From an uncultured Mollicutes bacterium (GTDB lineage Bacteria > Bacillota_I > Bacilli_A > ML615J-28 > CAG-313), in the NCBI GenBank assembly GCA_900538885.1, contig UQAI01000001.1, forward strand, positions 25,862 to 89,861: a stretch of DNA of 64,000 bases. The letters are read 5' to 3'. Positions 12,540 to 64,000 of the stretch are shown piece by piece (position 1 is the stretch's first letter; each line of letters begins with the position of its first letter). The translations under genes and the position numbers were made by a program. The notes under the pieces were generated by a model, which had not been told where the DNA came from, did not search any database, and saw only the letters and a program-made list of their open reading frames with translations.

Positions 12540-12552
12540 TATTAGTAGAATA

Positions 12553-12583
12553 GGTTTGATACAATGTTATCAAGCCTTTTTTT
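12553..12583 (+). terminator. tRNA-Leu rho-independent terminator hairpin (GGTTTGATACAATGTTATCAAGCC + T7); also candidate attL core
   Basis: 9-bp imperfect palindrome plus T7; near-identical copy without T tail at 62709-62731. Confidence 0.7.
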
Positions 12584-12687: not shown

Positions 12688-12766
12688 CTTACACGATTAC
12701 ATCAAAGGGTGCTAAAAATTTTACACGATTTGAAGTAGGGGTGCTAACGGTTTACACGATTTGCTA
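12688..12766. repeat. about 2.5 tandem copies of a ~30-bp repeat (TTACACGATT-N8-GGGTGCTAAAAATT), repeat set A
   Basis: direct tandem repetition seen in sequence; same family at 62594-62680 and partial inverted copy at 22645-22670. Confidence 0.8.
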
Positions 12767-12850
12767 CAGAGCATACTTCGTATCAATAGACAAAATGAGA
12801 AAAAAGTGTTATAATTATTGCATAATTTATTCGTTTTCGGAGGGCATAAT

Positions 12851-13042
12851 ATGGATTACGCATCTGCTATAAAGAAATTAAGAAATAAAATGATTCTTAC
12901 ACAGACTGAATTTGCAAAAGAACTCGGTGTTTCTTTTGGAGCTGTTAATAGATGGGAGTCAGGGAAATTTAAACCTACCACTAAAACGAAAAGAAAAATA
13001 GCTGAACTATTTAAGAAATACAATATAGAAGTGGAGGATTAA
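12851..13042 (+). CDS. XRE-family helix-turn-helix transcriptional regulator (possible controller of the R-M operon)
   Basis: HTH_3 pattern TQTEFAKELGVSFGAVNRWESG; start at ATG 12851 behind GGAGGG RBS. Confidence 0.6.
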   Translation: MDYASAIKKLRNKMILTQTEFAKELGVSFGAVNRWESGKFKPTTKTKRKIAELFKKYNIEVED

Positions 13043-13045
13043 TTT

Positions 13046-16000
13046 ATGGCAAGTGGTTTTAATGAAGCAACTAGAGTTCAAATGCCTGCTCTAGTTCATT
13101 TACAAAGATTAGGCTATACATACGTCGGAAAAATAACCGAAGATCAAGCTGGTGTTGTTTATGATCCTGACACCAATATTTTAATCAAAGTCTTTAAAGA
13201 ACAATTTTGTAAGTTGAATCCTGGTCATGAAGGTGAAGCAGAACAAGTACTGAAAGATATTAGAATAGAATTGGATAATGATGATCTAGGTCGTTCATTC
13301 TTTAAAAGAATGCAAATGGTATCACCAGTAAAAATCATAGATTTTGATAATATTCAAAATAACGTATTCCACTATACTGCTGAATTTACATGCAAAAGAG
13401 ATCAAGATGAATTTAGACCTGATATTACATTATTTGTTAATGGATTACCTTTATGTTTTATAGAAGTTAAAAAGCCAAACAATAAAGGTGGATTGATCGC
13501 TGAAAGTAATAGAATGAACAATCAGAGATTTCCAAATAAGAAATTTAGAAGATTCATTAACATTACCCAACTTATGATTTTCTCGAATAATATGGAATAT
13601 GATACTCTTGGAGGAATTGTACCAGTTCAAGGTGCTTTTTATTGTACTGCTTCAAGAAATAAGTCTTTTTTCAGTTGCTTTAGAGAAGAGAATCCTGGCA
13701 ATGCCTCAGTTGCGCCATACAATAAAAATTATCCTTATGAAGAGATTGATGCTGTTGTAGAAAAGAAGATTTTATCTGATTTCAATTGCCAAGTAATTCA
13801 TACATCTCCAGAATATCAAACAAACCTAAATATCAATACACCTACAAATAGAATTTTAACTTCTATGTGCAGTAAAGAACGTCTTATGTTCTTGCTAAAA
13901 TATGGAATCGCATATGTTAAAAGTGAACGTGAAGTTGATGGTAAAATTGAGAGTACAGACCAAAAACATATTATGCGTTATCAACAGATGTTTGCTGCTT
14001 TGGCCATTAGAGAAAAATTAGATAAAGGATTGACAAGCGGTGTTGTTTGGCATACTCAAGGTAGTGGAAAAACCGCACTATCTTATCATCTTAACCATGT
14101 ATTAACTGATTACTTTGCAAAGCAAAATAAAGTAGCAAAATTTTATTTTATCGTTGATAGACTTGATTTATTAGAACAAGCTTCTCAGGAATTTGAAGCC
14201 AGAGGATTGGTTGTAAAAACTGCGAACAGTAGATCAGAATTGATGGCGCAATTTAGAACTAACCAGTCTTTAGAGGGTAATAGTGGTGCCAATGAAGTAA
14301 CTGTTGTTAATATCCAAAGGTTCGAAGAAGATAAAGAGAAAGTTACACTTCCTGATTATGCTACGAATTTACAAAGAATTTTTATAATTGACGAAGCTCA
14401 CAGAGGATATAAGCCAGAGGGTAGTTTTTTAGCTAATCTATTCGATGCTGATCCTAATTCTGTCAAAATCGCATTAACAGGTACACCTTTATTGAAGGAA
14501 GAACGTTCATCTTGGAAAGTATTCGGTACATATTACCATACATATTACTATGATAAATCGATTCAAGATGGATATACATTAAAGGTATTAAGAGAGCCTG
14601 TTGAAACATCATATAAAGAAAAATTATCTGAAATATATGAAAAATTAGAAACACTAGTTCAAAAGAAGGATGTCCAAAGAACACAAATAATTGAGCATGA
14701 TGTTTATGTTAAAGAACTTTTGAGATATATCATTTCAGATTTAAAACAGTTTAGACAAATCCAAGGTGACGATACTCTTGGAGGCATGATCATTTGTGAA
14801 ACAAGTGAGCAAGCAAGAAAATTATTCGCTTTCTTTGATAGCATTCAAAAAGAACTAAATGAGAATGCGTCGTTAAAGAGTTATTTTAAGGCTGGATTAA
14901 TATTGCATGACAGCGATGATAAAGAAACTAGAAAAAAGACTGTTACAAATTTCAAGAAGAACATGACAATCGATATTTTAATCGTATTTAATATGCTATT
15001 AACAGGCTTTGATGCTCCAAGACTTAAGAGATTATATTTTGGCAGAAAATTAAAAGATCACAATTTATTACAAGCTATTACGCGTGTGAATAGACCATAT
15101 AAAGAAAATAGATATGGTTATGTAGTTGATTTTGCTGATATTAAGAAAAATTTCGATGAGACTAACGAAGCTTATATGAAGGAATTAAACCGATTCAATG
15201 ATCCTGGCGAAGTTGGCGAAGGAAACGAGACTGACACATTCAAACAAGTTATAGAAGATAAAGACGCATTGATTCAACAGATGCAAGAGGTAAAGCAAAT
15301 TTTATTTGCTTATACAACGGATAATGCAGAGGAGTTTAGTTCTGAAATCTCTACGATTGAGGATAAAGAAGAACTTTTGAAATTGAAAAAAGCACTGGTA
15401 TCAGCTAGAGATTGTTGCAACATTGTAAGAACATTTGGTGATGATGAATTAAAAGCTAAATTTGCAGCAATGGAGATTACTAAACTTCCTTCATTAATAT
15501 CAGAAGTGCAACATCACATTGACAGCATAAATCAAAAAGAAGCATTAGCTGAAAGTGACTCAACAAAGCAATTAATTAATGAAGCAATGCAAGATATTAC
15601 TTTCAAGTTTCAAATGTTGACAGAAGAAGAAATGAAAATTATTTCAGGAGGCCAGGAGTTAGAAGATAAGTGGAAGAAGACAATTCGTTCATTTACTGAA
15701 AACGAGGACCAAGAAGATCCAGAATACATTACTTTACGTCAAGCATTTATTGAAAGATTCAAAGAACATGGTTTTGTTGTTGAAAGTGTAAGCCAATTTG
15801 AAAATTATACAAAGGAGCTAGATGAAATATTAAAGAAGCTAGCTGAATTGCAAAAGAAGAATAGTGCACTGTTGAAAAAGTACAATGGTGATGCTAAGTA
15901 TGCGCGTGTCCATAAGAGAATTAAAGAAGAAAACGAAAGCAGAAAAGCTAAAGGTGAGAAGCCACTAATTTCTGAATATGATGTCGATATTATGAATGCG

Positions 16001-16213
16001 CTAAAAATTATTAAAGATGAGATAGACCAAAAAGTTTACGATAGGCATGATATCTTGAGAAAAGATGTTTACTTTGAGCAAACAGTTATGGTACATATCA
16101 ATAATGGTATTGATAGATTAGGCTTTGAAAATACTAGGGAAGATAGATTGTTTATTCAATCAAGACTAAGCACCCAGTATTTAAATCAATACCATAATAC
16201 ATATGCAGCATAA
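13046..16213 (+). CDS. hsdR: Type I restriction enzyme R subunit (HsdR)
   Basis: HsdR N-terminal nuclease domain, SF2 helicase motifs TQGSGKT and IIDEAHRG, 1055 aa. Confidence 0.9.
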   Translation: MASGFNEATRVQMPALVHLQRLGYTYVGKITEDQAGVVYDPDTNILIKVFKEQFCKLNPGHEGEAEQVLKDIRIELDNDDLGRSFFKRMQMVSPVKIIDFDNIQNNVFHYTAEFTCKRDQDEFRPDITLFVNGLPLCFIEVKKPNNKGGLIAESNRMNNQRFPNKKFRRFINITQLMIFSNNMEYDTLGGIVPVQGAFYCTASRNKSFFSCFREENPGNASVAPYNKNYPYEEIDAVVEKKILSDFNCQVIHTSPEYQTNLNINTPTNRILTSMCSKERLMFLLKYGIAYVKSEREVDGKIESTDQKHIMRYQQMFAALAIREKLDKGLTSGVVWHTQGSGKTALSYHLNHVLTDYFAKQNKVAKFYFIVDRLDLLEQASQEFEARGLVVKTANSRSELMAQFRTNQSLEGNSGANEVTVVNIQRFEEDKEKVTLPDYATNLQRIFIIDEAHRGYKPEGSFLANLFDADPNSVKIALTGTPLLKEERSSWKVFGTYYHTYYYDKSIQDGYTLKVLREPVETSYKEKLSEIYEKLETLVQKKDVQRTQIIEHDVYVKELLRYIISDLKQFRQIQGDDTLGGMIICETSEQARKLFAFFDSIQKELNENASLKSYFKAGLILHDSDDKETRKKTVTNFKKNMTIDILIVFNMLLTGFDAPRLKRLYFGRKLKDHNLLQAITRVNRPYKENRYGYVVDFADIKKNFDETNEAYMKELNRFNDPGEVGEGNETDTFKQVIEDKDALIQQMQEVKQILFAYTTDNAEEFSSEISTIEDKEELLKLKKALVSARDCCNIVRTFGDDELKAKFAAMEITKLPSLISEVQHHIDSINQKEALAESDSTKQLINEAMQDITFKFQMLTEEEMKIISGGQELEDKWKKTIRSFTENEDQEDPEYITLRQAFIERFKEHGFVVESVSQFENYTKELDEILKKLAELQKKNSALLKKYNGDAKYARVHKRIKEENESRKAKGEKPLISEYDVDIMNALKIIKDEIDQKVYDRHDILRKDVYFEQTVMVHINNGIDRLGFENTREDRLFIQSRLSTQYLNQYHNTYAA

Positions 16214-16225
16214 GGAGAGAAATAT

Positions 16226-17848
16226 ATGAATATTAAACAAAAAACAATTGACTTAATTGATGCATTGAAAGCCACTTGTCAAACATACGGAATGGGTAAT
16301 GATGGAAATGAATATAAAATTATTACACAAGTATTTTTGTATAAGTTTTTAAATGATAAATTTGGACATGAGATTAAAGAAAAGTCAGTAAAAATTGCTA
16401 AAGCAGCTAAATGGGAAGAAGAATATGAAAGCATGAGTAATGAAGAAAGGTTGGATTTATTTGATAAGCTTTCTCCTGATATTCCTCGATTATATCCTGA
16501 ACACCTTATATCGTTTTTATGGAATCAACAAAGTAAAGGTGAATTTGACTTAATTTTCGATAGCACAATGATAGATATAGCTGAGAAGAACATTGATATC
16601 TTCTCGACTATGACAGATGAAAAAACTAGAATTCCTTTATTTGAAAAATTAACCGTATTTGTTACTGATGAAGCTAAAAGAGCGCCATTTGCACGTGCTT
16701 TAGTTGATAAATTAGCAAACTTCTCTTTTGAAGAGGCGTTTTCAGAACACTATGACTTTTTTGCAACAATTTTTGAATATTTGATTAAGGATTACAATAC
16801 AGCAGGCGGTGGAAAGTATGCTGAATATTATACTCCACACTCAATTGCTACAATTATGGCTAGACTATTAGTTGGAGAAACTGATAATTTGCATGACATA
16901 GAAGTATATGATCCATCTGCTGGCACAGGAACATTATTGATGGCTCTTGCACATAAAGTTGGTGAAGATAAGTGCACCATTTATTCTCAAGACATTTCAC
17001 AAAGAAGTAATAAGATGTTGAAATTAAATTTAATATTAAATAATTTAGTTTCATCACTTGATCATGCTATTCAAGGTGATACTTTGGTTTCACCATTTCA
17101 TAAAAATGATGATGGCACTGAGTTAAAACAATTTGACTTTGTTGTTTCTAATCCACCATTCAATATGGATTTTTCTGACACCAGAGATATAATCGCAGCA
17201 AAGACAACTAGATTCTGGGCAGGCGTTCCAAATATTCCAAAGAAAAAACTTGATGGTATGCCAATATATACATGTTTTATACAACATGTTGTTAATTCTT
17301 TAAAGAAAACTGGAAAGGCAGCTATCGTTGTACCTACGGGTTTTTTATCATCTAAAAGTGGTGTTGAAGGTACCGTTTTATCAAAATTAGTGGAAGAGAA
17401 GATAGTATATGGATGTATAAGCATGCCTTCAAACGTTTTTGCTAACACCGGAACTAATGTGTCAGTTTTATTTTTAGATGGTTCTAAATCAAGTACAGAT
17501 GTTATGCTTATAGATGCTTCAAAATTAGGTGAAGAATATAAGGAAGGAAAGAATCAAAAGAGAAGATTAAGAGATTTTGAAATTAATCAGATAGTTGATT
17601 CATTTATTAATAAAGTATCAAATGACGGCTTTTCTATTAACGTTAGTTTGGATAAGGTAAAAGAAAAGAAAAATTCATTATCAGCTGGAATGTATTTTAA
17701 AGTCAAAACTGATAATCCAACTATATCTACCTCAAAATATAATGAAATCGTCTGTGATTATATTACAGCATTGGATGAATACAAGCTAAATGCAGATAAT
17801 TTTGTTGAGTGGGCGAAAGATAGTTTATTAAAGAAGAATGATAAATAG
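16226..17848 (+). CDS. hsdM: Type I restriction-modification N6-adenine DNA methyltransferase subunit (HsdM)
   Basis: HsdM N-terminal domain, SAM motif DPSAGTGTLL, catalytic NPPF motif (VVSNPPFNMDF). Confidence 0.9.
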   Translation: MNIKQKTIDLIDALKATCQTYGMGNDGNEYKIITQVFLYKFLNDKFGHEIKEKSVKIAKAAKWEEEYESMSNEERLDLFDKLSPDIPRLYPEHLISFLWNQQSKGEFDLIFDSTMIDIAEKNIDIFSTMTDEKTRIPLFEKLTVFVTDEAKRAPFARALVDKLANFSFEEAFSEHYDFFATIFEYLIKDYNTAGGGKYAEYYTPHSIATIMARLLVGETDNLHDIEVYDPSAGTGTLLMALAHKVGEDKCTIYSQDISQRSNKMLKLNLILNNLVSSLDHAIQGDTLVSPFHKNDDGTELKQFDFVVSNPPFNMDFSDTRDIIAAKTTRFWAGVPNIPKKKLDGMPIYTCFIQHVVNSLKKTGKAAIVVPTGFLSSKSGVEGTVLSKLVEEKIVYGCISMPSNVFANTGTNVSVLFLDGSKSSTDVMLIDASKLGEEYKEGKNQKRRLRDFEINQIVDSFINKVSNDGFSINVSLDKVKEKKNSLSAGMYFKVKTDNPTISTSKYNEIVCDYITALDEYKLNADNFVEWAKDSLLKKNDK

Positions 17849-17859
17849 GAGCTGTAAAT

Positions 17860-19116
17860 ATGAAACTAAGAAATATATGTAAAATAGTTACAGACTCAAT
17901 TAATCCAAAAAAACAAAAAAATAAGCTTTTCGAGCTATATAGTTTGCCCGCTTTCGATGATTTCAAAAGGCCTGAAAATGTATATGGCTCAGATATCGAG
18001 AGCAATAAGTATTTGGTTCCAGAAAAAACAATATTGTTTAATAAATTAAATGTTAGATTCAAACGTATATGGAGGATCACCAACAATAACCAGGATAATA
18101 AAATATGCTCAACTGAGTTTCTACCAATAATTGTTGATGAAAAAATAGCCGATTTTGATTATGTTTATTTTTTATTGATGTCAGATCAAGTCACAGAATA
18201 CTTATGTGCACCAACAACTAATACTTCTGGAAGTCATAAGAGAATAGATCCAGATTTTCTACTTGATATGGAAATATCCTTGCCTGAATTAGACGAGCAA
18301 GTTCGCGTTGCAAGAAAACTAAAAACGCTAGATGATGAGGTTCAGTGTTGTTTTGATTTTGAAACTAAATCATTTAAATTTTTAAAAGATACATATGATT
18401 ACTGGTTTGTTTCTTATAACTTTCCTAACAATAATGGTGATGCATATAGTGAAAATGGTGGAACATTTGTAGAGGACAAAGAAACAGGTATTAATTATCC
18501 AACAAAATGGAGTTTTAATAAGATCGGACAGTATTTTAATGTTGTGAGAGGTGTAAGTTATAAGCCTGAAGATACTTCGGAAATAGAAACCGATATTCAT
18601 ATGCCGTTATTAAGATCAAATAATATTTACGACGAGAGATTAATACATGAAGATATAGTGTTTGTTGATAAAAAAAGGGTAAGTGAAGAACAAATATTAC
18701 ATGCAAATGATGTGTTTATTTGTATGTCTAATGGCAGTAAAAATTTAATTGGTAAAAATACAATTATTCCATATGATACAGAATATGCCTTTGGAGCTTT
18801 TTGTGCTAAAATTAAGAATATAGATTGCGATTATTTAGGCTTTATAAACTTATTCTTTAAGAGTAATTATTATAAAGCTTATATCGCACAAATATGTGCA
18901 AACACTAGTATAAATAATATCGGAAATGAAATGTTAACTGACTTAAAATATCCATTACCTCCGCTAAATATCGCTAAAAAGTTTAATGAAATATATTTAA
19001 AAGTAATGTCTGAAGTCGGGAATGCGCATAAATTTATGTTATCGACAAGAACATTATTAGAAAAACATATATTTATGGACATGAATGGAGTACTCATAAA
19101 TAGTTCAGAAGATTAA
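17860..19116 (+). CDS. hsdS: Type I restriction-modification specificity subunit (HsdS), two target-recognition domains
   Basis: 418 aa, duplicated TRD/conserved-helix architecture, immediately downstream of hsdM. Confidence 0.85.
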   Translation: MKLRNICKIVTDSINPKKQKNKLFELYSLPAFDDFKRPENVYGSDIESNKYLVPEKTILFNKLNVRFKRIWRITNNNQDNKICSTEFLPIIVDEKIADFDYVYFLLMSDQVTEYLCAPTTNTSGSHKRIDPDFLLDMEISLPELDEQVRVARKLKTLDDEVQCCFDFETKSFKFLKDTYDYWFVSYNFPNNNGDAYSENGGTFVEDKETGINYPTKWSFNKIGQYFNVVRGVSYKPEDTSEIETDIHMPLLRSNNIYDERLIHEDIVFVDKKRVSEEQILHANDVFICMSNGSKNLIGKNTIIPYDTEYAFGAFCAKIKNIDCDYLGFINLFFKSNYYKAYIAQICANTSINNIGNEMLTDLKYPLPPLNIAKKFNEIYLKVMSEVGNAHKFMLSTRTLLEKHIFMDMNGVLINSSED

Positions 19117-19156
19117 AAAAGCGACTTAGCTCAATTACGAGTTAAGTCGCTATTTT

Positions 19157-19357
19157 TTATTCTGGAATATATTCCATTATATCTTTGAAGTCACAACTAA
19201 GTGTCTTGCAAATTTTGCAAAGCACATCAGTAGTTACATTTTGACCTTTGGTCATTTTAGCAATTGAAGAGGAACTAACACCAGAGAGCTTAATAAGCTC
19301 TTTTTTGTTTAGGTTCTTATCGATTAATAATTTCCATAATTTGTTATAACTTATCAT
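19157..19357 (-). CDS. XRE/Cro-family HTH protein, last gene of the minus-strand three-component operon
   Basis: 66 aa HTH_3 (ELIKLSGVSSSSIAKMTKGQNVTTDVLCKICKTL); 1-bp gap to upstream ATPase gene. Confidence 0.55.
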   Translation of the reverse strand: MISYNKLWKLLIDKNLNKKELIKLSGVSSSSIAKMTKGQNVTTDVLCKICKTLSCDFKDIMEYIPE

Positions 19358-19358
19358 T

Positions 19359-21188
19359 TTATGCTTTCCTTACATTCTTTAAGAAGCCGTATCTACCTTT
19401 GTTTTCTTTTTGAGTGAACTTGTAGATAACAACATCATCGTTAATTTCTAATTCAGGCAATTCGCTGTATTTTGTGTTTTCAATTATAACGATCTGGTCT
19501 GCTGTTTCAAGATTTATTAAATAATCAAAGAATCCTTTTCTAACGTTATCTGAATCCTCATCTTTATCTTCAGGAACTGATAATCCCTTAAGTGGTGAAT
19601 CTAAGAACCAGAAGCAGCCTTTGTTGGCACTTTTTTCTTCTATGTACTTCCTTAAAAGAAGAATAAGCATGGAGTTGGTGAACGCTTTATATCCTTTACC
19701 ACGTCTGATCTTATTCTTATTGTTAACTATTAAATCTAACTTGGTTTCAGTAAAGTCAATAGTACTGATATTTGGGTATTTAACGTCAGTAAAGATTTGA
19801 ACACCGTTATCAATTACATATTGACCTATGATTGAGAATAGAATTTTCTTTGCTTCAAATTTTAGTTTAGGTACATCATCACCTTTTTGGTATTTCTTTA
19901 AGTCTTCTTCAAGATCAACGTCATTTGCTCCTAGTTCATCAATCGCAGACTTAAGTCGAATATACTCTTCATAACTTTGAATTTTTTTCGCAAGTTCTGT
20001 TCTCTTAGGAGTAAGGACTTCATTGATTTTTGTTTTGTTGATTTCTATTGTTTCTTTATAGACAGCAATTAGATCCCCATCATCATCCAATGTATCTTTT
20101 AGCATTGCTGATGTCTCATCTAGTTCATTAAGATTGTTAACAACATTTCTTAGTTCGACTTTTGCAGCTTCGATATAAGAAGTAGGGTTTTTTGGAGTCA
20201 TTTCATGGTCACAGTAAGGGCATTTAGATTTTGTTGTCTTGTGGCCTATAGAGACTTCATTATTAACGATAAATGTTAATCTATTAATTTCCTTTTGATA
20301 GTCACTTTTTAATTCTTCATATTTAGAGAATATTAATTCATTTTTTTGTTGTTTCTTTTGAAGAGTCATTAAGTTAAATGATGTAGTGGTATTTTCAGAT
20401 GTTAAGCGTTCAATCTCATCGTTTAACTTTATAAGACTCTCATTTAGTTCTTGAATAACAGTTTCTAATGAAGCTAGGTCAATGCCTGATTGCTTTAGTT
20501 TATCTTCTAAAACTTCCTTCTTTTTAGACATAGCTATTCTATGTTCTGAAATGTAGGCGATTACTGCATTTCTTTTTGCTTTTTTGATTTCGTCAGATTC
20601 ATCTTTTTTTAGATAGTCTTCTAGCGTATTTCCAGTAAGGAAATATATTAATGCAGCAAGATATGTGGTCTCTCCATTTTGTTGAAGAAGTACGGATTTA
20701 GGCTTGTCAGCTTTATCTTCATCAATTAGGAATGTTTTTTTAATCGTTCTCCAAGAAAATCTTTCTGGATCGCCATCAATATTAGAAGGAATCTTAAGGT
20801 CATCCTTTAATCCTAATATCTTAAGCATCAATTTATCTATCGTTTTATTATTTTTTTTACCTTCCTTAAGAACATATTCGCCGCTTTCAATTTCAGGATT
20901 GTCACAAGAAACTGTGGTTTTAGAAGTGCCTTGTACTCTGGTTAGTGTGATGTCACCGTATTGAGTTTCAATTATTAGGGTGATGGTATCAAACCCATCT
21001 GACTCATCGAATGGAGCATGATCGTCATCGTTTTTAGCACCAAGTACATAATCAACGCATTTATAAATACAGGATTTACCAGTATCAGAAGGTCCAGCGA
21101 TAATGGTTAGTTTATTTCCGAATTCAATTTCTGATGGTTCAGCATTTGGTCCGGTAGCAATAAGCTTTTTAAGTTTAATAAAACCCAT
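19359..21188 (-). CDS. Rad50/SMC-like ABC ATPase with central coiled coil and CxxC zinc-hook (LmuB / ABC-3C ATPase-like)
   Basis: Walker A GPSDTGKS at N-terminus, ~250-aa heptad-rich coiled coil with CPYC at its midpoint, C-terminal Walker B/D-loop FWFLDSPLKGLS. Confidence 0.6.
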   Translation of the reverse strand: MGFIKLKKLIATGPNAEPSEIEFGNKLTIIAGPSDTGKSCIYKCVDYVLGAKNDDDHAPFDESDGFDTITLIIETQYGDITLTRVQGTSKTTVSCDNPEIESGEYVLKEGKKNNKTIDKLMLKILGLKDDLKIPSNIDGDPERFSWRTIKKTFLIDEDKADKPKSVLLQQNGETTYLAALIYFLTGNTLEDYLKKDESDEIKKAKRNAVIAYISEHRIAMSKKKEVLEDKLKQSGIDLASLETVIQELNESLIKLNDEIERLTSENTTTSFNLMTLQKKQQKNELIFSKYEELKSDYQKEINRLTFIVNNEVSIGHKTTKSKCPYCDHEMTPKNPTSYIEAAKVELRNVVNNLNELDETSAMLKDTLDDDGDLIAVYKETIEINKTKINEVLTPKRTELAKKIQSYEEYIRLKSAIDELGANDVDLEEDLKKYQKGDDVPKLKFEAKKILFSIIGQYVIDNGVQIFTDVKYPNISTIDFTETKLDLIVNNKNKIRRGKGYKAFTNSMLILLLRKYIEEKSANKGCFWFLDSPLKGLSVPEDKDEDSDNVRKGFFDYLINLETADQIVIIENTKYSELPELEINDDVVIYKFTQKENKGRYGFLKNVRKA

Positions 21189-21190
21189 AA

Positions 21191-21628
21191 TTATTTCTTA
21201 ACTCCTTTCGTTCTATCTTTTAATTTTTGTATCGTAATAGGCTTCATTTCATCTATGATGTTAGAAGCGAATTTTTTATATTCTATAGAGTAATCATCGT
21301 TCATTTCTGACACATATGCCTTACCAGAATCGGTAATTGCGTATATAAAACCTCTATCTGGATTGTTCGTTACAGTAGCAAGACCTCTGAATAATAGTTC
21401 TTTTAGCGAGTTCTTTATAAGCTTGCGCTGTATTGTGAACTCGTTAAGTGGAAATGAGCAGACACCGTTTAAGTTTGATTCACCAAATCCATAATGTTCA
21501 GCATATATGGCAAAGAAGTCCAGACGCGCTATTTCATCTTCGTTTAGATAACTTTGTTTATCTAAAATCATAAGAAGGCGCATAGAAACTTCAAATTCAG
21601 TATTAAAAAGCTTTGTCATTATAGCCAC
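21191..21628 (-). CDS. small alpha-helical middle component (LmuC-like) of the three-gene ATPase system
   Basis: 145 aa, overlaps upstream gene by 10 nt and sits 2 nt from ATPase gene; size and position match the middle component of ABC three-component systems. Confidence 0.4.
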   Translation of the reverse strand: MAIMTKLFNTEFEVSMRLLMILDKQSYLNEDEIARLDFFAIYAEHYGFGESNLNGVCSFPLNEFTIQRKLIKNSLKELLFRGLATVTNNPDRGFIYAITDSGKAYVSEMNDDYSIEYKKFASNIIDEMKPITIQKLKDRTKGVKK

Positions 21629-22581
21629 CTTACCTTTCCGTCATTAACAAGCATGTGGACCATGCCCATTTTCTCTTCAGTTCCTACCATACCATTGCCA
21701 GCAGTAGTGAAATAACTTTTTGAAAAGGTAATAACCATCACTTTATCCATTGTCTTATTTAATTTTTCATAAGCATCAGGAACCATTGAATTTGTATAAA
21801 GTCTTATTGCTTTATAAATCTCGTCTTTCATAGATGAAAATTCCTGTTCACCATCGTAGAAGAAATTTCTAACTTGTCTTAGCACCGTTTCAGCACTATA
21901 AAAGGCTTCACGATGTATTTGTAATTCCATTTGATAAACTGGATGACCATCCAAATCACCTATCGATGATATTGATTCACCAGTCTTTTGCGAGTAAACA
22001 GATAATAGTGCAGTTACATATTCACTTTCCATATCGTCGGGATTATCTGGGACAGTAAGTGCTGGTGGTAGAGTGTATTCAGTTCCACCAATTCTAACTT
22101 TATTGCCTGGAAGGAACACAGCTTTTTTAATAGATGTTTTTCTATTCTTCTCTGAACGCTCTTGAAGTAAATCTGCAAAGACATTAGCTAATTCTTCAGG
22201 TAAGTCAATACCTGCAAGAGTGACTCCTTTCTTAGCAAAGTTATCAATAAGTAAGCCTATGGCTTCATCAGTCAATTCAGCTGCATCATATACATCTTGA
22301 AAGTACTCTGATGTTATTTTACTTTTTAAATATCTGGCATCCTTAATTGGCATGTCGGTGTCATTTGTTTCATTAAGCAATTTTTCACAGTAGTTTTCAG
22401 ACTTCATTGTTATGTCATTAAGAATTTTATTATCGATTAATGAAATATCTGTAAACCAAGTTATTACATCTTGGTAAATAAGACGTGCACTTAATCTATG
22501 TGTTTCAGGATCGACTTGTATTTGGCTGGCAAATGCATTCTTAATTAAGTTTATAAACTCGTATATTTTCATTATTATCAC
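21619..22581 (-). CDS. first gene of the three-gene operon; candidate sensor/effector (LmuA-like position) with no recognisable catalytic motif
   Basis: 320 aa, translationally coupled to the next gene; no nuclease/TIR/Sir2/protease signature visible by eye. Confidence 0.4.
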   Translation of the reverse strand: MIIMKIYEFINLIKNAFASQIQVDPETHRLSARLIYQDVITWFTDISLIDNKILNDITMKSENYCEKLLNETNDTDMPIKDARYLKSKITSEYFQDVYDAAELTDEAIGLLIDNFAKKGVTLAGIDLPEELANVFADLLQERSEKNRKTSIKKAVFLPGNKVRIGGTEYTLPPALTVPDNPDDMESEYVTALLSVYSQKTGESISSIGDLDGHPVYQMELQIHREAFYSAETVLRQVRNFFYDGEQEFSSMKDEIYKAIRLYTNSMVPDAYEKLNKTMDKVMVITFSKSYFTTAGNGMVGTEEKMGMVHMLVNDGKVRWL

Positions 22582-22644
22582 TTCCTTTAGAATCGGACTA
22601 AATGGGTTAGTCCGAGTACGACCGAGTCAAAAATATGACATTTT

Positions 22645-52288: not shown

Positions 52289-52297
52289 GAGGTACGT

Positions 52298-52648: not shown

Positions 52649-52656
52649 GAGGACTT

Positions 52657-52923: not shown

Positions 52924-52935
52924 GAGGTATTCAAA

Positions 52936-57339: not shown

Positions 57340-57380
57340 CCCGAACTTTTGACACGATTTTCGGTCCTTAGACTTGAGGA
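57340..57380 (+). promoter_or_regulatory. ECF-sigma-type promoter-like element CCGAACTT-N16-TCCTTAGACTTGAGGA (copy 2)
   Basis: about 35/42 identity to 23691-23732; spacer contains TTGACACGATTT also found in the junction repeat family. Confidence 0.4.
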
Positions 57381-57391
57381 GGTATGAACCT

Positions 57392-57634
57392 ATGAATTTA
57401 AAAGAACAAATAAGAACCTTAAGTCAAAAGGGTTATGGCTATAAGAAGATAGCTAAAGAATTGAACATTTCAATTGGATCAGTAAGAAACGCTTTAGTTG
57501 AGACACCAAGCGATGAGGTGTGCAAGAACTGCGGAAAGAAGCTAAAGTTTGTTGTTGGTAAGAAAAAGAAGACATTCTGCTGTGATAGCTGTAGATACGA
57601 TTACTGGAACAAACAAAGAAGGGGTGGCAAGTAA
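57392..57634 (+). CDS. small HTH plus C4 zinc-ribbon DNA-binding protein preceding the recombinase pair (possible regulator or directionality factor)
   Basis: YGYKKIAKELNISIGSVRNAL HTH and CKNCGKK...CCDSC; GGAGG RBS. Confidence 0.45.
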   Translation: MNLKEQIRTLSQKGYGYKKIAKELNISIGSVRNALVETPSDEVCKNCGKKLKFVVGKKKKTFCCDSCRYDYWNKQRRGGK

Positions 57635-57635
57635 T

Positions 57636-57851
57636 ATGACTCCTTTGGAAAGATATATGGCTTCAGTTAAGGTTCTTGAGAAGATGGTTAAGGAAGGCTT
57701 GATTGATGAAAAAGAGTACATGAAAGTCGAATCGTTCCTAGCTAAAAAACACTGTATCAAACCTGACAGCATTTACCGTTCAAATCACTTGCTATTTCAG
57801 AGAAATAGAGTGATAGATAGTAATGCAAAAAAGGAGGCAAATAATGGATAG
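57636..57851 (+). CDS. small protein with SHOCT-like C-terminal motif
   Basis: 72 aa; GLIDEKEYMKVESFLAKK resembles the SHOCT motif. Confidence 0.3.
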   Translation: MTPLERYMASVKVLEKMVKEGLIDEKEYMKVESFLAKKHCIKPDSIYRSNHLLFQRNRVIDSNAKKEANNG

Positions 57852-59187
57852 AAACATAATCAAAATTGATGCAGAAAAGCAATTGAAATCCAGAATTAGG
57901 GTTTGCGCTTATGCTCGTGTTTCAAGAGATAAGGATGCGATGTTTCAATCGCTGTCAGCTCAGGTTAGCCATTACAACAAGATGATTAACAGCAACCCAG
58001 AATGGCAGTTCAAGGGAGTCTATGCGGATTATGCATTTTCAGGAACAAAGGAAGATAGACCGGAATTCCAAAAGATGCTGGAAGCCTGCAAAGCTGGTGA
58101 GATTGATTTAATTATCACAAAATCAATTTCAAGGTTCGCCAGAAACACAGAAACAGTGCTTAAAGTAGTTAGGGAATTAAAGGCTAGGGATGTAGATGTT
58201 TACTTCGAGGAACAAAAGATCCATACGATATCATCGGATGGTGAGTTCATGCTTAGCGTGCTTGCTGCTTATTACCAAGAGGAAGCCAGGTCGGTTTCAG
58301 AAAATATGAAATGGCGAATTAAGAAAGATTTCAGTCAAGGCATCATGTGGGGTGGCAAAGATAACTACGGTTACAAATATGACATCGATAAGAAGACGTT
58401 CATTGTAGTTCCTGAAGAGGCTGCTGTAGTTAAGCGAATCTTCGAACTATACATTGCTGGAGCAGGATTTCAAAAGATATCCAGCATCCTGAACTTGGAA
58501 GGCATAAAACCAATGACTGCAAATGAGTGGAGCAAGAATAACGTGACAGCCGTCATAAGCAACTCAAACTACACAGGCGACCTAATCCTTCAGAAGACAT
58601 ACCGCAAGGATTACCTATCAAAGAAAAAATGCAAGAACAACGGTGAGCTTCAGAAATACCTTGTCGAAGAGAACCATGAGCCAATAATCACTAAAGAGAT
58701 GTTTGAAAAGGCACAGAAAATCAGAAATGAGAGAATTATGAAGTATGACATTAAAACCAGAAAGGCAAAGAATAACTACCCTTTCACAGGCATTCTTAGA
58801 TGCGGATGCTGCGGTGGAGCATATCATCACAAGACGACAAGGTACAACTTAATCTGGATTTGCAGAACCTACAACACCAAAGGGAAAGGCTTCTGCTCAA
58901 GAAGCAAGCAAATAGATGAACGCAAGCTTTATGATGCGATTAACCAATACTTCGGTTGGGATAAGTTCAAACAAGATAAGTTCCTAGAGAAGGTTGAGAA
59001 GATTATAGCTAATCCAGGGAATGAGCTAGAGATTCACCTTAAGGATGGAACGGTTGACAAAATCTATTGGAATGACAGAAGCCGAAGCGAGGCATGGACT
59101 GATGATATGAAATCTAAAGCTAGAGCTAAGGCATTTAAACAAAACGAATTAAGAGGAGGGAACAACAGATGGCAAAAGTCAAAGTAA
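57844..59187 (+). CDS. large serine recombinase (CcrA-like size)
   Basis: N-terminal resolvase domain with catalytic-serine region VCAYARVSRD, recombinase domain, C-terminal Cys-rich zinc ribbon; about 448 aa. Confidence 0.8.
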   Translation: MDRNIIKIDAEKQLKSRIRVCAYARVSRDKDAMFQSLSAQVSHYNKMINSNPEWQFKGVYADYAFSGTKEDRPEFQKMLEACKAGEIDLIITKSISRFARNTETVLKVVRELKARDVDVYFEEQKIHTISSDGEFMLSVLAAYYQEEARSVSENMKWRIKKDFSQGIMWGGKDNYGYKYDIDKKTFIVVPEEAAVVKRIFELYIAGAGFQKISSILNLEGIKPMTANEWSKNNVTAVISNSNYTGDLILQKTYRKDYLSKKKCKNNGELQKYLVEENHEPIITKEMFEKAQKIRNERIMKYDIKTRKAKNNYPFTGILRCGCCGGAYHHKTTRYNLIWICRTYNTKGKGFCSRSKQIDERKLYDAINQYFGWDKFKQDKFLEKVEKIIANPGNELEIHLKDGTVDKIYWNDRSRSEAWTDDMKSKARAKAFKQNELRGGNNRWQKSK

Positions 59188-60740
59188 TACCACAAACGAT
59201 AAATCCGATGACAATGTCAGTTATTGGCTCAACTCAAAAAAGAAAAGTTGCTGCTTATGCCAGAGTAAGCACCGAGAATGAAGAACAACAATCATCATAT
59301 GAAGCACAGGTCAAATACTACACTGAGCATATAGCAACCAGACCAGACTGGGAATTCGTGAAGGTGTATTCTGATGAAGGTATATCAGGAACCAACACAA
59401 AAAGAAGAGTTGGCTTTAGATCGATGATACAGGATGCAGTTGATGGGAAGATTGACCTAATTCTAACCAAATCAATATCGAGATTTGCCAGAAACACCTT
59501 AGACAGCATATCCTACATTAGACAATTGAAAGCTGCTGGAACTGAGGTCTATTTTGAAAAGGAAAATTTATGGACATTCGATTCAAAGTCTGAAATGGTG
59601 CTGTCTATGCTTAGTGCTATTGCTCAAGAGGAAAGCCGAAGCATCTCAGAGAACGTTAAGATGGGCAAGAGATGGCAAATGAAGGAAGGAAAGGTTACAA
59701 TTCCTTGTAAGGCGTTCTTAGGATACCAAAATATAGATGGTAAGATTACGATTGATAAGGATGAGGCAATCATCGTTAGAAGAATTTACTCAATGTTCTT
59801 AAAGGACGGTATGACAAGAAAGGCTATAGCAGATACTCTGAAGGCTGAGGGAATTCCTACTCCATCAAAGAAAGGCTGCAACTGGACCGTCAACAACATT
59901 CAGTCGATACTCACCAACGAGAAGTACAAAGGCGATGCATTGCTACAAAAGGTCTATTGCGACGATTATCTTGAGCACAAGGTAAAGAAGAACAACGGTG
60001 TGTTACCTCAATATTACGTTGAGAATTCGCATCCTGGAATCATCAACAAAGAAGAATGGACAATGGTTCAGGAGGAGCTTAAGAGAAGAGAAGGCATCAG
60101 ATACTCATACCAAACAAGCAATCCTTATTTAGCAAAGCTTAGATGCTCGGAATGCGGACACTTCTTCGGAATCAAGGTATGGCATTCCAACTCAATCCAC
60201 AGAAAAGAGGTATTGCAATGCAACGGCAAATACAAATGCGGATGCAAGTCACCTAATCTTAGCCAAGATGAAGTCAACAGGAAGTTCATAGAAGCCTACA
60301 ACCAAGTGATGGACAACAAGAAAGGCTTGATAGAAGACACCAAAGAGGTCATAGAAATGCTAACCTCAACTGAGAAAATAGACGCGAAGGTACAAGCATT
60401 AACGAATGAGATGGAGGAGGTTCAGCTATTGGTAGAGAACCTAATTCACGACAATGCCAGAAGGAACCAAGACCAAGAAGAGTACGAAAGACACTATCAA
60501 GAGTTGGTAAGTCAATTCAATGCAGCTAAAGCTAAAATGAAATCCTTGCTAGAGGAAAAACAATCCAAACTAGACAGGATTGAAATACTTAATGCTTTCA
60601 TTGTTTCCTTAGAAGATAAAGAAGCCGTCATAGATGAATTCTCAACTGATCTATGGAACTTAATGATTCAAGATGCATTAGTCAGCGAGGATGGAACAAT
60701 TAAGTTTGTATTCAAGAATGGAACAGAAATTACAATGTAA
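59169..60740 (+). CDS. large serine recombinase (CcrB-like size), overlapping the upstream recombinase gene by 19 nt
   Basis: AAYARVSTENEEQQSS catalytic region, recombinase domain, zinc ribbon CSECG...C, C-terminal coiled coil; 523 aa. Confidence 0.8.
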   Translation: MAKVKVIPQTINPMTMSVIGSTQKRKVAAYARVSTENEEQQSSYEAQVKYYTEHIATRPDWEFVKVYSDEGISGTNTKRRVGFRSMIQDAVDGKIDLILTKSISRFARNTLDSISYIRQLKAAGTEVYFEKENLWTFDSKSEMVLSMLSAIAQEESRSISENVKMGKRWQMKEGKVTIPCKAFLGYQNIDGKITIDKDEAIIVRRIYSMFLKDGMTRKAIADTLKAEGIPTPSKKGCNWTVNNIQSILTNEKYKGDALLQKVYCDDYLEHKVKKNNGVLPQYYVENSHPGIINKEEWTMVQEELKRREGIRYSYQTSNPYLAKLRCSECGHFFGIKVWHSNSIHRKEVLQCNGKYKCGCKSPNLSQDEVNRKFIEAYNQVMDNKKGLIEDTKEVIEMLTSTEKIDAKVQALTNEMEEVQLLVENLIHDNARRNQDQEEYERHYQELVSQFNAAKAKMKSLLEEKQSKLDRIEILNAFIVSLEDKEAVIDEFSTDLWNLMIQDALVSEDGTIKFVFKNGTEITM

Positions 60741-60745: not shown

Positions 60746-60780
60746 AAAACCAGCCGCTTTATAAAATGGCTGGTTTTTTA
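60746..60780 (+). terminator. rho-independent terminator (ccagcc...ggctgg + T6) after the recombinase pair
   Basis: seen in sequence. Confidence 0.7.
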
Positions 60781-60848: not shown

Positions 60849-61109
60849 ATGAATAGAAAGCTTAAAGTCTATGAACAATCTATGGGTGGGGGAAACTACA
60901 CTCAAGTTCCAACGATTTTATTAAAGGGAAAGTGGCTTGAAGAAGCTGGGTTTAAAGCCGGCGAGTACGTTGAGGTTGTTTGCGATGGTGACAAGATTAT
61001 TCTTACGAAAACTAGTGCACCAGAGCCAAGAAAGTCACTCGAAGATAGAATCAAGAATTTAAGCGAAAGTCAAAAAAAGAAACTGTCTGAGATGATTGAT
61101 AAATTATAG
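60849..61109 (+). CDS. SymE-like (AbrB/SpoVT-fold) toxin-family protein
   Basis: LKGKWLEEAGFKAGEYVEVVCDGDKIILTK matches the SymE core motif L.G.WL..AGF..G..V.V. Confidence 0.5.
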   Translation: MNRKLKVYEQSMGGGNYTQVPTILLKGKWLEEAGFKAGEYVEVVCDGDKIILTKTSAPEPRKSLEDRIKNLSESQKKKLSEMIDKL

Positions 61110-61123
61110 AAGGGAGTCCAAAT

Positions 61124-62095
61124 ATGAGCCAAAAAGAAGAAATTTTAAGACTTCTAAAAGAAAATAATTCAATGACTCAAGGTGACCTATCTATTGCAAT
61201 TTATGGTGATAATAAGCATATGCCAAATATCTACGGTGCTTTAATGTCACTTGTTGACGCTGGAGTTGTTGTAAGAACTGGTTCGCAGCCTTCTTATTAT
61301 TCATTAAGTGGTGTTGAACCTGCAATTCAAGTGCAAGAAGAAGCAAATATTAATGTACATCCAAAAATTAAATATGGTAGTCAATTACAACTTGACAATG
61401 TTCTTAATTCATTAGTTACTCGAAATAATATAGAAATGGATAGAACGAATAACCTTGTTAAATTAACAAAGTCTAATTCGAGAATTATTGAAGATTTAAT
61501 TAGAAATGATTATGGATATATTCCTTTTGCCAATATGATTTACAAACAATTATGCAGTGAAAATAGTGGCTCTTTTCCAAATACTACATATGCATGGTCT
61601 GCTTTGGTTAGAATAATTGACCTTGATAACTCCACCCAAGTTTGGAGATTCCATAGACCAGATTTTCATAAAATCATAGATTATATTGTTGATCCTTCTA
61701 ATAACTTCATCGATAGATTGTCACGAGGTGATGTGTCTCTAGTGGATGAGATTAAGAATAGTATGCAACCAGTCGATATCAAGAGTCTTCCAAGTAAGAT
61801 TTGTAAATATACATCAGAGTACATGAACTTCGGTGACAATTATTTTATAAATGATTATTACGTTAGAAGCATGCTTCCTTTTTACTTGGATTATTATCAT
61901 GTTGATTGTAGCAATATTTGTATTAGGAGTTGTTTTGAAACGAAGACACATAGAGAAGCATTGCCTTATCAAGTATTGTTCGATTTATTAGATGCTTTAT
62001 TAGTAAAAATTAATGAAACAGAGCAAGAACCACTAACTAAAAATGAGTTGGATCATATTATATGGTATTGCTATAAAAGTTACAGTAGGGATTAG
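61124..62095 (+). CDS. hypothetical protein with N-terminal winged-helix-like domain; first gene of an AT-rich two-gene cassette
   Basis: 323 aa; N-terminal LRLLKENNSMTQGDLSIAIYG...LVDAGVVVR wHTH-like; remainder unrecognised. Confidence 0.35.
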   Translation: MSQKEEILRLLKENNSMTQGDLSIAIYGDNKHMPNIYGALMSLVDAGVVVRTGSQPSYYSLSGVEPAIQVQEEANINVHPKIKYGSQLQLDNVLNSLVTRNNIEMDRTNNLVKLTKSNSRIIEDLIRNDYGYIPFANMIYKQLCSENSGSFPNTTYAWSALVRIIDLDNSTQVWRFHRPDFHKIIDYIVDPSNNFIDRLSRGDVSLVDEIKNSMQPVDIKSLPSKICKYTSEYMNFGDNYFINDYYVRSMLPFYLDYYHVDCSNICIRSCFETKTHREALPYQVLFDLLDALLVKINETEQEPLTKNELDHIIWYCYKSYSRD

Positions 62096-62593
62096 GTGAT
62101 TGCTATGGCTAATATGAATAATGAACAAAAATTAATAAATGATTTACTTAAAAAAAATGCAAGTTTATCACCTGCACCATTAAAAATATTGTCATCATGT
62201 GTAGCGGCTAAGAAAAATTGTGATGTGGAATTCACAGGAACAATTCCTGGTATGCTTGTTCAAAATCAATTTTGTTTGGAGGCTAAATCTGATAAAGCTA
62301 CTAATAAAAGTAATAATGTACTGCTTATCTTCGGTGATATATTAAAAGATAGAAAACTAAATGGATTGTCCAATGTTTCTTATGGTGCGTTGTTAGAGTA
62401 CCACTCATCTCAAGGAATGAAGAGTTTTTTTATAGATCAAATTCAAAAATACATCGATTCTGTTGACTGGGATAATTTTGGTTCAACTTATGGATGCGAT
62501 TATATTTTCTTCTATGACGATTCAACACATGAGTTATTCTATTCAGAATGGACAGGCTTCGTTACTGCAAAATCAATAAAAAAGTGGTTCTAG
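62096..62593 (+). CDS. hypothetical protein, second gene of the cassette
   Basis: 165 aa, starts at the stop of the upstream gene (coupled); no motif recognised. Confidence 0.3.
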   Translation: MIAMANMNNEQKLINDLLKKNASLSPAPLKILSSCVAAKKNCDVEFTGTIPGMLVQNQFCLEAKSDKATNKSNNVLLIFGDILKDRKLNGLSNVSYGALLEYHSSQGMKSFFIDQIQKYIDSVDWDNFGSTYGCDYIFFYDDSTHELFYSEWTGFVTAKSIKKWF

Positions 62594-62680
62594 GGGTGCT
62601 AAAAGTTGACACGATTTGAAGCAAGGGTGCTAAAAATTTTACACGATTTAAAAGTAGGGGTGCTAAAATTGTATTAAAAC
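62594..62680. repeat. about 2.5 tandem copies of the ~30-bp GGGGTGCTAAAA-TTGACACGATTTGAAG repeat (set C)
   Basis: same family and orientation as 12688-12766. Confidence 0.8.
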
Positions 62681-62708
62681 ATTTCTACTTTGACATAAGA
62701 AAAGCAAA

Positions 62709-62731
62709 GGTTTGATACAAGTATCAAGCCC
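62709..62731. mobile_element. attR-like duplicate of the tRNA-Leu terminator hairpin (GGTTTGATACAAGTATCAAGCCC), right boundary of the ~50-kb accessory segment
   Basis: 22/24 identity to 12553-12576; flanks diverge on both sides. Confidence 0.55.
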
Positions 62732-62793: not shown

Positions 62794-64000
62794 CTACGCT
62801 TTTTCATTTGGCAAGTCGACTTTGCCGATACCATTATAGAAGATATCGATTCTCATTTGTCTATGGCCATCAACTTTCTCAGCCTTATGAACGATAACCT
62901 TCTCTATGAATTCTCGTGCTATTTCATGAGTAAGCTCATCAATTCTTGTGTATTTTTGGACTAGTTCCATGAAATGGGAAGTAGATGCTGTTTGCTCATT
63001 AATGGCTTTGATTTTGCCTTCTAACTCAGCAATCTTTTCTTTTAGAGAAGTTTGCTCCTGCTCATAATTCTCATTCATCTTTTTGAATCTATCTTCAGAG
63101 ACAATACCTGATATTTTATCCTCATAAAGGTTTTGGATGATTGAATCAAGTTTCTCGATTCTGGCTTTTGATGCGTTTAGCTCCTTATTGAGAAGATTAA
63201 GTGATTTCGTGATATTCGCTGTCGACTCACTGGACACAAGCTTTATGAATTCATCCTCGTGTTCCTTTGCAAACTCAATATGACGCTTGATATCTTCAAG
63301 GACGATTTCATCGATAATCTTAATTCTTATTTGATGAGCTGAGCACAATCCTTGTCTCTTACGGTAAGTAGAACAACAATAATAATATGATTCTGGTTGA
63401 AGTGATTTAGTTCTGCAAACATATAGTTTCTTGCCACAGTCCGCACAATATATCATTCCAGATAGAACAGGCATTTCACCCATTGGTGTATTAGCCCTTT
63501 TTCTACCTTCCTTTAGCCTTTGCACTATGTCAAATGTCTCTTGATCGATAATAGCTTCATGAGTGTCCTTGATAATTACCCATTTTGAAGGTGGGTTAAT
63601 AAAGGACTTTTTGTTTTTGTAGGACTTTCTGCCAGTTTTGAAATTAACCGTATGGCCTAAGTATTCTTGCCTTGATAGGATATCTGAAACGACTGACCAA
63701 TCCCACCAATAAGGGTCTATGTTGTCCTTGCTATGGGTGTTAGGTATTCCTTTAGCATTCTTGTAAGAAGTAACATTAAGCACCTTTCTATCAGTTAAGA
63801 TTGTCGCAATCTTAGATGGCCCATTTCCTTGTACTGCTAAGCGGAATATCTCTTTAACAACCTCGGCAGCCTCTTCATCGATAAGCCAGTTGTATTTGTT
63901 GTTAGGGTCTTTCTTATAGCCGAACACTGGAATAGGAGCGGTAGGTTTTCCTGAATCACTCTTAGCTTTGATAACGGCTCTAATCTTCTTTGAGGTATCT
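62794..64000 (-). CDS. large serine recombinase, N-terminal part beyond window edge
   Basis: recombinase domain plus zinc-ribbon (CADCGKK...C) and C-terminal coiled coil; reading frame remains open to position 64000. Confidence 0.8.
   Translation of the reverse strand, partial: DTSKKIRAVIKAKSDSGKPTAPIPVFGYKKDPNNKYNWLIDEEAAEVVKEIFRLAVQGNGPSKIATILTDRKVLNVTSYKNAKGIPNTHSKDNIDPYWWDWSVVSDILSRQEYLGHTVNFKTGRKSYKNKKSFINPPSKWVIIKDTHEAIIDQETFDIVQRLKEGRKRANTPMGEMPVLSGMIYCADCGKKLYVCRTKSLQPESYYYCCSTYRKRQGLCSAHQIRIKIIDEIVLEDIKRHIEFAKEHEDEFIKLVSSESTANITKSLNLLNKELNASKARIEKLDSIIQNLYEDKISGIVSEDRFKKMNENYEQEQTSLKEKIAELEGKIKAINEQTASTSHFMELVQKYTRIDELTHEIAREFIEKVIVHKAEKVDGHRQMRIDIFYNGIGKVDLPNEKA

Follow-up and report, generated by a model that had tools for sequence, protein, structure and literature searches.

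Tandem large serine recombinases as the probable integration module of a prophage at tRNA-Leu in an uncultured Mollicutes bacterium

Do two overlapping genes for large serine recombinases, carried by one prophage, form a single integration system, and how might the two proteins share the work? The question is raised by a 64,000-nucleotide stretch of contig UQAI01000001.1 (assembly GCA_900538885.1, uncultured Mollicutes bacterium), referred to below as the window, in whose coordinates positions are given unless another locus is named. A first-pass annotation of this DNA had picked out the pair, with resolvase, recombinase and zinc-ribbon domains, had placed a small helix-turn-helix (HTH)/zinc-ribbon gene and a SHOCT-like gene upstream of it, and had proposed that the pair is CcrA/CcrB-like and serves as the prophage's recombination module. 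The gene content and the role hold up. The short upstream recombinase (Ser1), the longer downstream one (Ser2) and the two small genes before them very probably constitute the integration module with which the phage uses tRNA-Leu. As the best explanation overall we favour, with moderate confidence, a four-gene integration/excision module in which Ser1 and Ser2 make up a heteromeric recombinase. The module reads as follows.

57392..57634, + strand: HTH/zinc-ribbon gene, 80 amino acids (aa), first gene of the module
57374 (alternative TTG start), + strand: the same HTH/zinc-ribbon gene at 86 aa
57636..57851, + strand: SHOCT_2 gene, 71 aa, overlapping the start of Ser1 by 8 nt
57844..59187, + strand: Ser1, short large serine recombinase, 447 aa, no coiled-coil motif in its AlphaFold2 model
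59169..60740, + strand: Ser2, canonical large serine recombinase, 523 aa, coiled-coil motif in its AlphaFold2 model
60750..60779, + strand: hairpin CCAGCC...GGCTGG followed by a T-run, 3' of Ser2, read from the sequence

All four genes abut or overlap, with successive spacings of +1, -8 and -19 nt; in the open reading frame (ORF) list of the window Ser1 and Ser2, both on the + strand, share 19 nt. A longer start at 57823 would extend Ser1 to 454 aa, and gene callers favour the ATG at 57844, giving 447 aa. The hairpin behind Ser2 is the probable terminator of a four-gene operon and escaped a simple terminator scan because its loop is long. The HTH/zinc-ribbon protein matches phrog_2308 at 1.6e-15 and has a visible CxxC...CxxC motif, its Pfam matches to Sigma70_r4_2/HTH_7 being weak and sub-threshold, while the SHOCT_2 protein matches PF20612 at 27.6 bits (cut-off 24) and also phrog_2996.

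Both recombinases carry the expected domains. Pfam finds Resolvase (PF00239), Recombinase (PF07508) and Zn_ribbon_recom (PF13408) at 1.7e-29, 4e-26 and 3.9e-11 in Ser1 and at 7.1e-33, 1.8e-23 and 1.4e-05 in Ser2, and Foldseek pairs both models with serine integrase structures solved by cryo-EM. Across 42 aligned homologues of each protein, R25, S27, R97 and R100 of Ser1 and R32, S34, R105 and R108 of Ser2 show no variation, the zinc-binding cysteines are invariant in both families, and so are the motifs YARVS and SRFARN. As judged from these alignments the catalytic residues are intact in both proteins, Ser1 included, for which the first-pass annotation had considered inactivating mutations. 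The two proteins are 37% identical over 362 residues, and no Pfam match to DUF4368 (PF14287), the C-terminal domain of the TnpX/TndX type, was found in either. They differ in what follows the zinc ribbon. The AlphaFold2 model of Ser2 has a coiled-coil motif, a long antiparallel helical pair formed by helices 402-431 and 436-482. That of Ser1 passes from the zinc ribbon into two short helices, a three-strand sheet and a conserved C-terminal helix; a long helical hairpin after the zinc ribbon was sought in this model and none was seen (predicted local distance difference test score, pLDDT, 75-78). Both models finish in beta strands.

The module can be tied to its target through the ends of the prophage. 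As judged from these ends, the element is a temperate phage of 50,156 bp at 12540-62695, integrated in an uncultured gut Mollicutes/Bacilli bacterium; this supports the first-pass view of the pair as a prophage recombination module and corrects the element boundary which that view implied, with the prophage starting at 12540 and continuing to 62695. The recombinases lie about 2 kb inside its right end.

12454..12539, + strand: tRNA-Leu(GAG), the integration target, called by ARAGORN and left intact by the insertion
12514..12564, + strand: attL; B arm formed by the 3' part of tRNA-Leu, centre CA at 12538-12539, P' arm 12540-12564 (TATTAGTAGAATAGGTTTGATACAA)
62669..62720, + strand: attR; P arm 62669-62693 (TTGTATTAAAACATTTCTACTTTGA), centre CA at 62694-62695, B' arm 62696-62720

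The crossover we place at the final CA of tRNA-Leu(GAG). For attP we deduce TTGTATTAAAACATTTCTACTTTGA-CA-TATTAGTAGAATAGGTTTGATACAA, a 52-bp near-palindrome; because its two arms are symmetric, agreeing at 18 of 25 positions, we set the centre on this CA, at which cleavage would then fall. No long direct repeat marks the junctions: attL, attR and the empty attB have only CATA in common there. The ends are fixed by a locus of the same host species that is without the insertion (L107), in which 25 of 25 positions match the B' arm of attR (TAAGAAAAGCAAAGGTTTGATACAA), the matching stretch lying behind the CCA of tRNA-Leu(GAG). In a different host (L099), which carries the same phage core at 96% identity, the acceptor stem of the tRNA and the flank upstream of it differ from the window, while 27 of 27 positions after the CCA are identical.

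Related phages give the same ends. In four relatives with modules 70-97% identical to that of the window (L011-L014), homology holds through Ser2, gives way to different genes and returns in a segment of about 130 bp equal to window 62591-62695. Six contexts that hold a phage with a different recombinase pair (L005-L010) diverge straight after the equivalent of ...CTTTGACA. In one of the relatives (L011, 49,673 bp) the P arm is joined to a P'-like arm, and this sequence may be a circular phage genome. The deposited genome PV036447.1 (Anaeroplasmataceae phage NatCom_34063, Ca. Heliusvirales) starts with CACCA, a hairpin and a T-run and finishes with TTGTATTAAAA-N14-CA, at the same spacing as in the window; these matching ends back the att assignment independently. 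Scanning IMG/VR with the P-arm sequence returned one uninformative contig and with the phage's sigma-like protein no match, and look-ups with LmuB and the sigma-like protein returned mostly the same lysogen. To the left of tRNA-Leu stand genes for trigger factor, ClpX, Lon and RNase R and a 154-aa ORF called SmpB by the gene caller.

Three other placements of the ends were considered and rejected. A palindrome GGTTTGATAC-AA-GTATCAAGCC (62709-62730) resembles an att core and is actually the hairpin of the native tRNA-Leu terminator, its 5' stem being the outer B' motif. A GGG-N8-CCC motif after this hairpin is ruled out as the core of attR by the six L005-L010 junctions together with the empty site, and a left end near 22.6 kb, suggested by GC content and by a hairpin at 22593-22615, is ruled out by L099, L107 and PV036447.1. 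The insertion also rearranges termination behind the tRNA. The P' arm and its continuation (12540-12586) supply a new hairpin and T-run straight behind the intact tRNA-Leu in place of the native terminator, which has been shifted 50 kb, to attR; the 5' stem of the new hairpin doubles as a predicted outer recombinase-binding motif, TGATAC.

Is the pairing an accident of this phage? We surveyed one genome per species for Ser1-like genes and obtained 80 loci, from Clostridia, Bacilli, Mollicutes-like lineages and Negativicutes. Where there was room downstream, a full-length Ser2-like gene follows directly on the same strand in 65 of 70 loci, and the remaining five have Ser2-like fragments there; since the loci were picked by similarity to Ser1, these figures show that Ser1-type genes accompany Ser2 and do not speak to the converse. 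With the Ser1-then-Ser2 arrangement kept in 65 of the 70, the adjacency is not due to chance. The small genes recur as well, a SHOCT_2 ORF standing upstream of the Ser1-like gene in 64/75 loci and a homologue of the HTH/zinc-ribbon ORF in 53/69. A neighbour-joining tree, built with a single outgroup and without bootstrap values, puts all upstream partners in one clade and all downstream partners in another, with identities of 47% and 56% inside the two clades and of 35% from one to the other. Distances among the upstream partners correlate with those among the downstream ones (Mantel r = 0.59; none of 300 permutations reached this value). Tree and distances together indicate that Ser1 and Ser2 are old paralogues inherited together, and the survey that this type of pair is conserved among Bacillota prophages; each of the two has thousands of relatives in metagenomes. 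The first-pass annotation had held such pairs to be untypical of prophages, and this view does not survive the 65 paired loci, the streptococcal phages phi1207.3 and phi-m46.1 described in 2014, or the same module in PV036447.1. As for movement of the module, window 52001-53295, in the tail/lysis region, is 92% identical in DNA to the L005-L010 phages, and Ser1 is only about 55% identical between them; because of this discrepancy we regard the recombination module as a block that is swapped between phages.

The closest DNA matches in a phage collection are Anaeroplasmataceae phage NatCom_34063 and some sixty streptococcal phages. Among the latter, Streptococcus phage phi1207.3 has Orf55 (SHOCT_2, full-length match at 71.8 bits) followed by the overlapping Orf56 (412 aa) and Orf57 (521 aa), which in the neighbour-joining tree fall within the Ser1 clade and the Ser2 clade, respectively. 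The order of SHOCT_2, short and long recombinase and its right-end place behind the lysis genes are as in the window prophage, and modules of this type are also found in phi10394.4, phi-m46.1 and many Javan prophages. Iannelli et al. described the tandem pair in 2014 and proposed that the two proteins cooperate, drawing parallels with SCCmec and phi-m46.1 (PMC4260502); a functional test of such a phage recombinase pair was not found in the searchable literature. The streptococcal version differs in that no HTH/zinc-ribbon gene was detected upstream in phi1207.3, Orf56 is only about 34% identical to Ser1 and is without the conserved C-terminal SRSxSWTPEMKEKAR tail, and the targets reported for phages of this type are comEC or rum (PMC4260502), not a tRNA gene. 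PV036447.1 is closer: all four genes (132, 69, 436 and 529 aa) stand in the same order at the right end, the attP geometry agrees, and its left end likewise runs from tRNA end through hairpin and repeat array to cargo. Its points of difference are an identity to Ser1 of about 48%, a genome of 63 kb and a different repeat motif, GGGGTGTCG / TAGAACGATTAC. The Heliusvirales paper that was searched mentions no integrase.

How would two recombinases work on one set of sites? With the canonical serine integrases (A118, Bxb1, phiC31, TP901-1) the pair shares domain order and fold, as well as an attP, here deduced, of about 50 bp with a 2-bp crossover. Those integrases act as homodimers or homotetramers with a separate directionality factor, whereas here there are two paralogues, one of them modelled without a coiled-coil; A118 integrase deprived of its coiled-coil loses site selectivity and intermolecular integration (PMC3783163). 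A further difference from the canonical systems is that in the window prophage the outer half-site motif keeps the same register in attP and attB. TTGTATyAAAmC occurs in one register in the P, P' and B' half-sites, and the B half-site, which is the tRNA arm, has merely T(C/T)AAA(T/A)C in that register.

Another parallel is SCCmec, the staphylococcal cassette chromosome (SCC), in which a two-gene operon likewise encodes large serine recombinases of unequal length, CcrA the shorter and CcrB the longer; their profiles have 442 and 542 positions, as against 447 and 523 aa for Ser1 and Ser2. AlphaFold2 models of Ccr recombinases are reported to show C-terminal beta strands past the zinc-ribbon domain, and the SCCmec enzymes to lack strict directionality and to recombine many site pairings about equally; the extra C-terminal strands could keep a directionality factor from its binding site (PMC12286644). 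These statements on CcrAB are second-hand and follow PMC5595907, PMC3783163 and PMC12286644. CcrA/CcrB is likely to be a serviceable working analogy for Ser1/Ser2.

Because the model of Ser1 is without a coiled-coil and that of Ser2 has one, we suggest a heteromeric recombinase that would work in the manner of CcrA/CcrB. That Ser1 and Ser2 act jointly in one complex we rate at even chances or a shade better. Given that P, P' and B' carry TTGTATyAAAmC and B is the tRNA arm, one kind of dimer would sit on attB and attL and another on attP and attR. Under this scheme integration and excision would be chemically alike, and direction would be set by expression or by the SHOCT_2 and HTH/zinc-ribbon partners, which might act through repeat arrays beside attP. 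A more specific version, which we put forward tentatively and think improbable in its full form, makes the heteromer obligate: the tRNA half-site would be read by Ser1 and the three of TTGTAT type by Ser2, a Ser1/Ser2 site would react with a Ser2/Ser2 site in integration and excision alike, and the SHOCT_2 and HTH/zinc-ribbon proteins would impose direction via the arrays.

The arrays in question, with a related single motif, are these.

62594..62667, + strand: right-arm array of three GGGTGCTAAA and two ACACGATTT, abutting the P arm
12691..12762, + strand: left-arm array with the same motifs, as three ACACGATT and two GGGTGCTAA, some 150 nt inward of attL
57352..57360, + strand: lone ACACGATTT copy that shares bases with a TTGACA hexamer, some 40 nt before the HTH gene

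Within the arrays the composite motif GGGTGCTAAA...ACACGATTT recurs at a spacing of about 32 bp. ACACGATTT occurs six times, against 0.47 expected by chance; the position of the copy before the HTH gene is conserved in L011-L014, and another single copy lies at 22662 on the - strand. Equivalents of the right-arm array are present in L011-L015 and PV036447.1, and the left-arm array is found in L099 and, with its own variant of the motif, in PV036447.1. Since the latter phage keeps the layout and has a different motif, the array motif and its putative binding protein may co-vary.

Several points weigh against a joint action of the two recombinases. The AlphaFold2 models on which the coiled-coil contrast is based are of moderate confidence (pLDDT 75-78). 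Co-inheritance and translational coupling are no proof of physical interaction between Ser1 and Ser2. That Ser1 would be the protein on the tRNA half-site we purely infer; the element L105, which uses the same attB with a pair of its own, gave no hint of which subunit reads which arm, its recombinases being 49% and 46% identical to those of the window with no asymmetry. Finally, a Ser2 homodimer might suffice, given that attP is nearly symmetric and Ser2 alone is canonically complete.

This last point leads to the main rival, in which Ser2 is the sole integrase and Ser1 an accessory, e.g. a directionality partner, a resolvase of phage multimers or an invertase; we consider it unlikely, though a serious contender. 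It draws on the full canonical architecture of Ser2, coiled-coil included, on the 18 of 25 matches between the half-sites of attP, and on the precedent of the gin element, in which GirC integrates by itself, no part in this reaction having been shown for the paired girAB (PMC5595907). It fits less well with Ser1 itself, whose catalytic residues and DNA-binding domains have all been kept under long-term conservation, which is translationally coupled to Ser2 and hardly ever occurs without it, and for which no inverted-repeat or res-like target was found.

A different challenge concerns the left end, between 12.5 and 22.9 kb, which is occupied by defence genes.

12842..22581: left-arm cargo, with an HTH_3 gene, type I restriction-modification genes (13046-19116), an HTH gene and Lamassu
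19359-22581, - strand: Lamassu genes LmuA, LmuC and LmuB, E-values down to 1e-151, LmuA of 320 aa

This island could be host DNA or a separate element, with the phage starting only near 22.6-22.9 kb. GC content climbs only at about 22 kb, the island varies between lysogens, and homology with L099 resumes only at 22890. We nevertheless think this improbable, as neither a tRNA nor a junction of att type lies at 22.6-22.9 kb, what stands immediately behind the CCA is phage-like and recurs unchanged in the different host of L099, and the B' arm of attR in the window matches the empty site. Moreover, L011 and PV036447.1 have the same hairpin, repeats and cargo order joined to a P arm, and in L102 and L106 phage replication genes directly follow the tRNA.

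Could the pair instead be an orthologue of CcrA/CcrB and the region an SCC-like cassette? The likeness is one of layout, short upstream and long downstream recombinase in one operon, and this much of the first-pass comparison stands. Membership does not. Phylogeny against CcrA, CcrB, TnpX and TndX was approximated through NCBIfam scores only, which for Ser1 are 143 bits to CcrB, 81 to CcrA and 79 to CcrC and for Ser2 106 to CcrB, 92 to CcrC and 67 to CcrA, with cut-offs of 700-900. Because both proteins score best to CcrB, Ser1 has no claim on these profiles to be the CcrA counterpart. SCC inserts at the 3' end of rlmH (orfX) and is a non-phage cassette, whereas the window element is a tailed prophage at tRNA-Leu(GAG) with terminase, portal, capsid and tail genes. 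We know of no SHOCT_2 or HTH partner in SCC. By these scores CcrA/CcrB membership is already refuted, and we give the cassette reading very little credence.

Least credible of all, and already refuted, is a recent local duplication, or a tandem fusion of two elements each with its own recombinase: three recombinase genes within 7 kb and a hotspot at tRNA-Leu invite it, and against it stand the 37% identity of Ser1 and Ser2, their separate clades with correlated partner distances, the overlap of their ORFs in one operon, an arrangement found in 65/70 loci across Bacillota, and the position of the third gene, a truncated remnant outside attR.

62794..64000, - strand: TnpX-like recombinase remnant with DUF4368, 5'-truncated, outside attR and not part of the module

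We followed this third gene past the window in L003 (13626-15176). Its Resolvase match covers positions 48-144 of the 145-position profile, and no YxRxS motif was found in the reading frame upstream; because of these two observations we regard it as a 5'-truncated remnant without the nucleophile. The 129-aa ORF upstream of it has no family match. Beyond it come DUF6017, DUF3801, VirD4-type and Maff2 genes, which belong to a conjugative element inserted some 25-35 bp past the tRNA, at the point where the window leaves the empty-site sequence. The third recombinase looks like what an older element left behind, cut by or beside the conjugative one.

The tRNA-Leu locus is an integration hotspot: within the host species nine different contexts follow the same tRNA, common up to ...GCACCA and divergent beyond. 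Thus the hotspot proposed by the first-pass annotation is borne out, and its composite or tandem system that included the third recombinase is not. Among the other occupants, L104 has LlaJI-type restriction, and L103 and L108 have type I restriction with an hsdS shufflon. L105 and L109 (6587-12492) hold a non-phage-looking element with a DUF3987/PriCT primase, whose own recombinase pair of 443 and 522 aa adjoins the tRNA and is transcribed toward it, opposite to the window phage.

The cargo of the prophage varies on both arms. On the right it has a slot between Ser2 and attR.

60849..62593, + strand: right-arm cargo slot with a SymE-like gene and genes for proteins of 323 aa and 165 aa

The SymE-like gene matches SymE_toxin (Pfam) at 7.7e-11; PADLOC gave no match for the SymE-like, 323-aa, 165-aa, HTH and SHOCT_2 proteins. 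The same slot has McrBC-like genes in L013/L014 (L013 12990-18131) and is empty in L011. On the left arm, other defence genes are found in L099 (449-9594: a large methyltransferase, an AIPR protein and others) and none in L102/L106, so that defence cargo on the arms varies among otherwise near-identical phages. Most of the defence islands open with a small HTH_3 gene just past the repeat array.

Cargo-like genes also lie elsewhere in the prophage. Between the lysis region and a leucine-rich repeat (LRR) gene, window 53433-53927 encodes a 164-aa protein similar to aminoglycoside 2''-adenylyltransferase (PF10706, 6.5e-24), a slot taken in L013/L014 by a GNAT acetyltransferase. The LRR gene (54106-56784), of low GC content, encodes 892 aa that open like a lipoprotein and include a collagen-like GDKGDK stretch and LRRs of the BspA type (LRR_5, 2.9e-41), and because it is absent from L013/L014 it is probably a surface protein of lysogenic conversion. 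Just upstream of the packaging genes, window 32001-34072 encodes a 260-aa protein with an S-adenosylmethionine synthetase N-domain and then a 434-aa fusion of ParB-N and N6_N4 methyltransferase.

Large serine recombinases are in wide use for genome engineering, and structural work on their directionality is active. The two-protein form is common; resistance phages of streptococci have it, as does a deposited gut phage of the Heliusvirales. In the literature we searched we did not find the combination brought together here, namely an empty site together with exact att sites, the coiled-coil contrast, the conserved SHOCT_2 and HTH partners and the arrays on the attP side. The locus offers a clean test case, with attB, attP, attL and attR deduced to the base and the empty site available. 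The exchangeable defence cargo on the phage arms and the several elements at one tRNA-Leu are relevant to the movement of defence systems between gut Mollicutes. If the obligate-heteromer reading were true, large serine recombinases would gain an undescribed way of controlling direction, one widespread in the phages of gut Bacillota.

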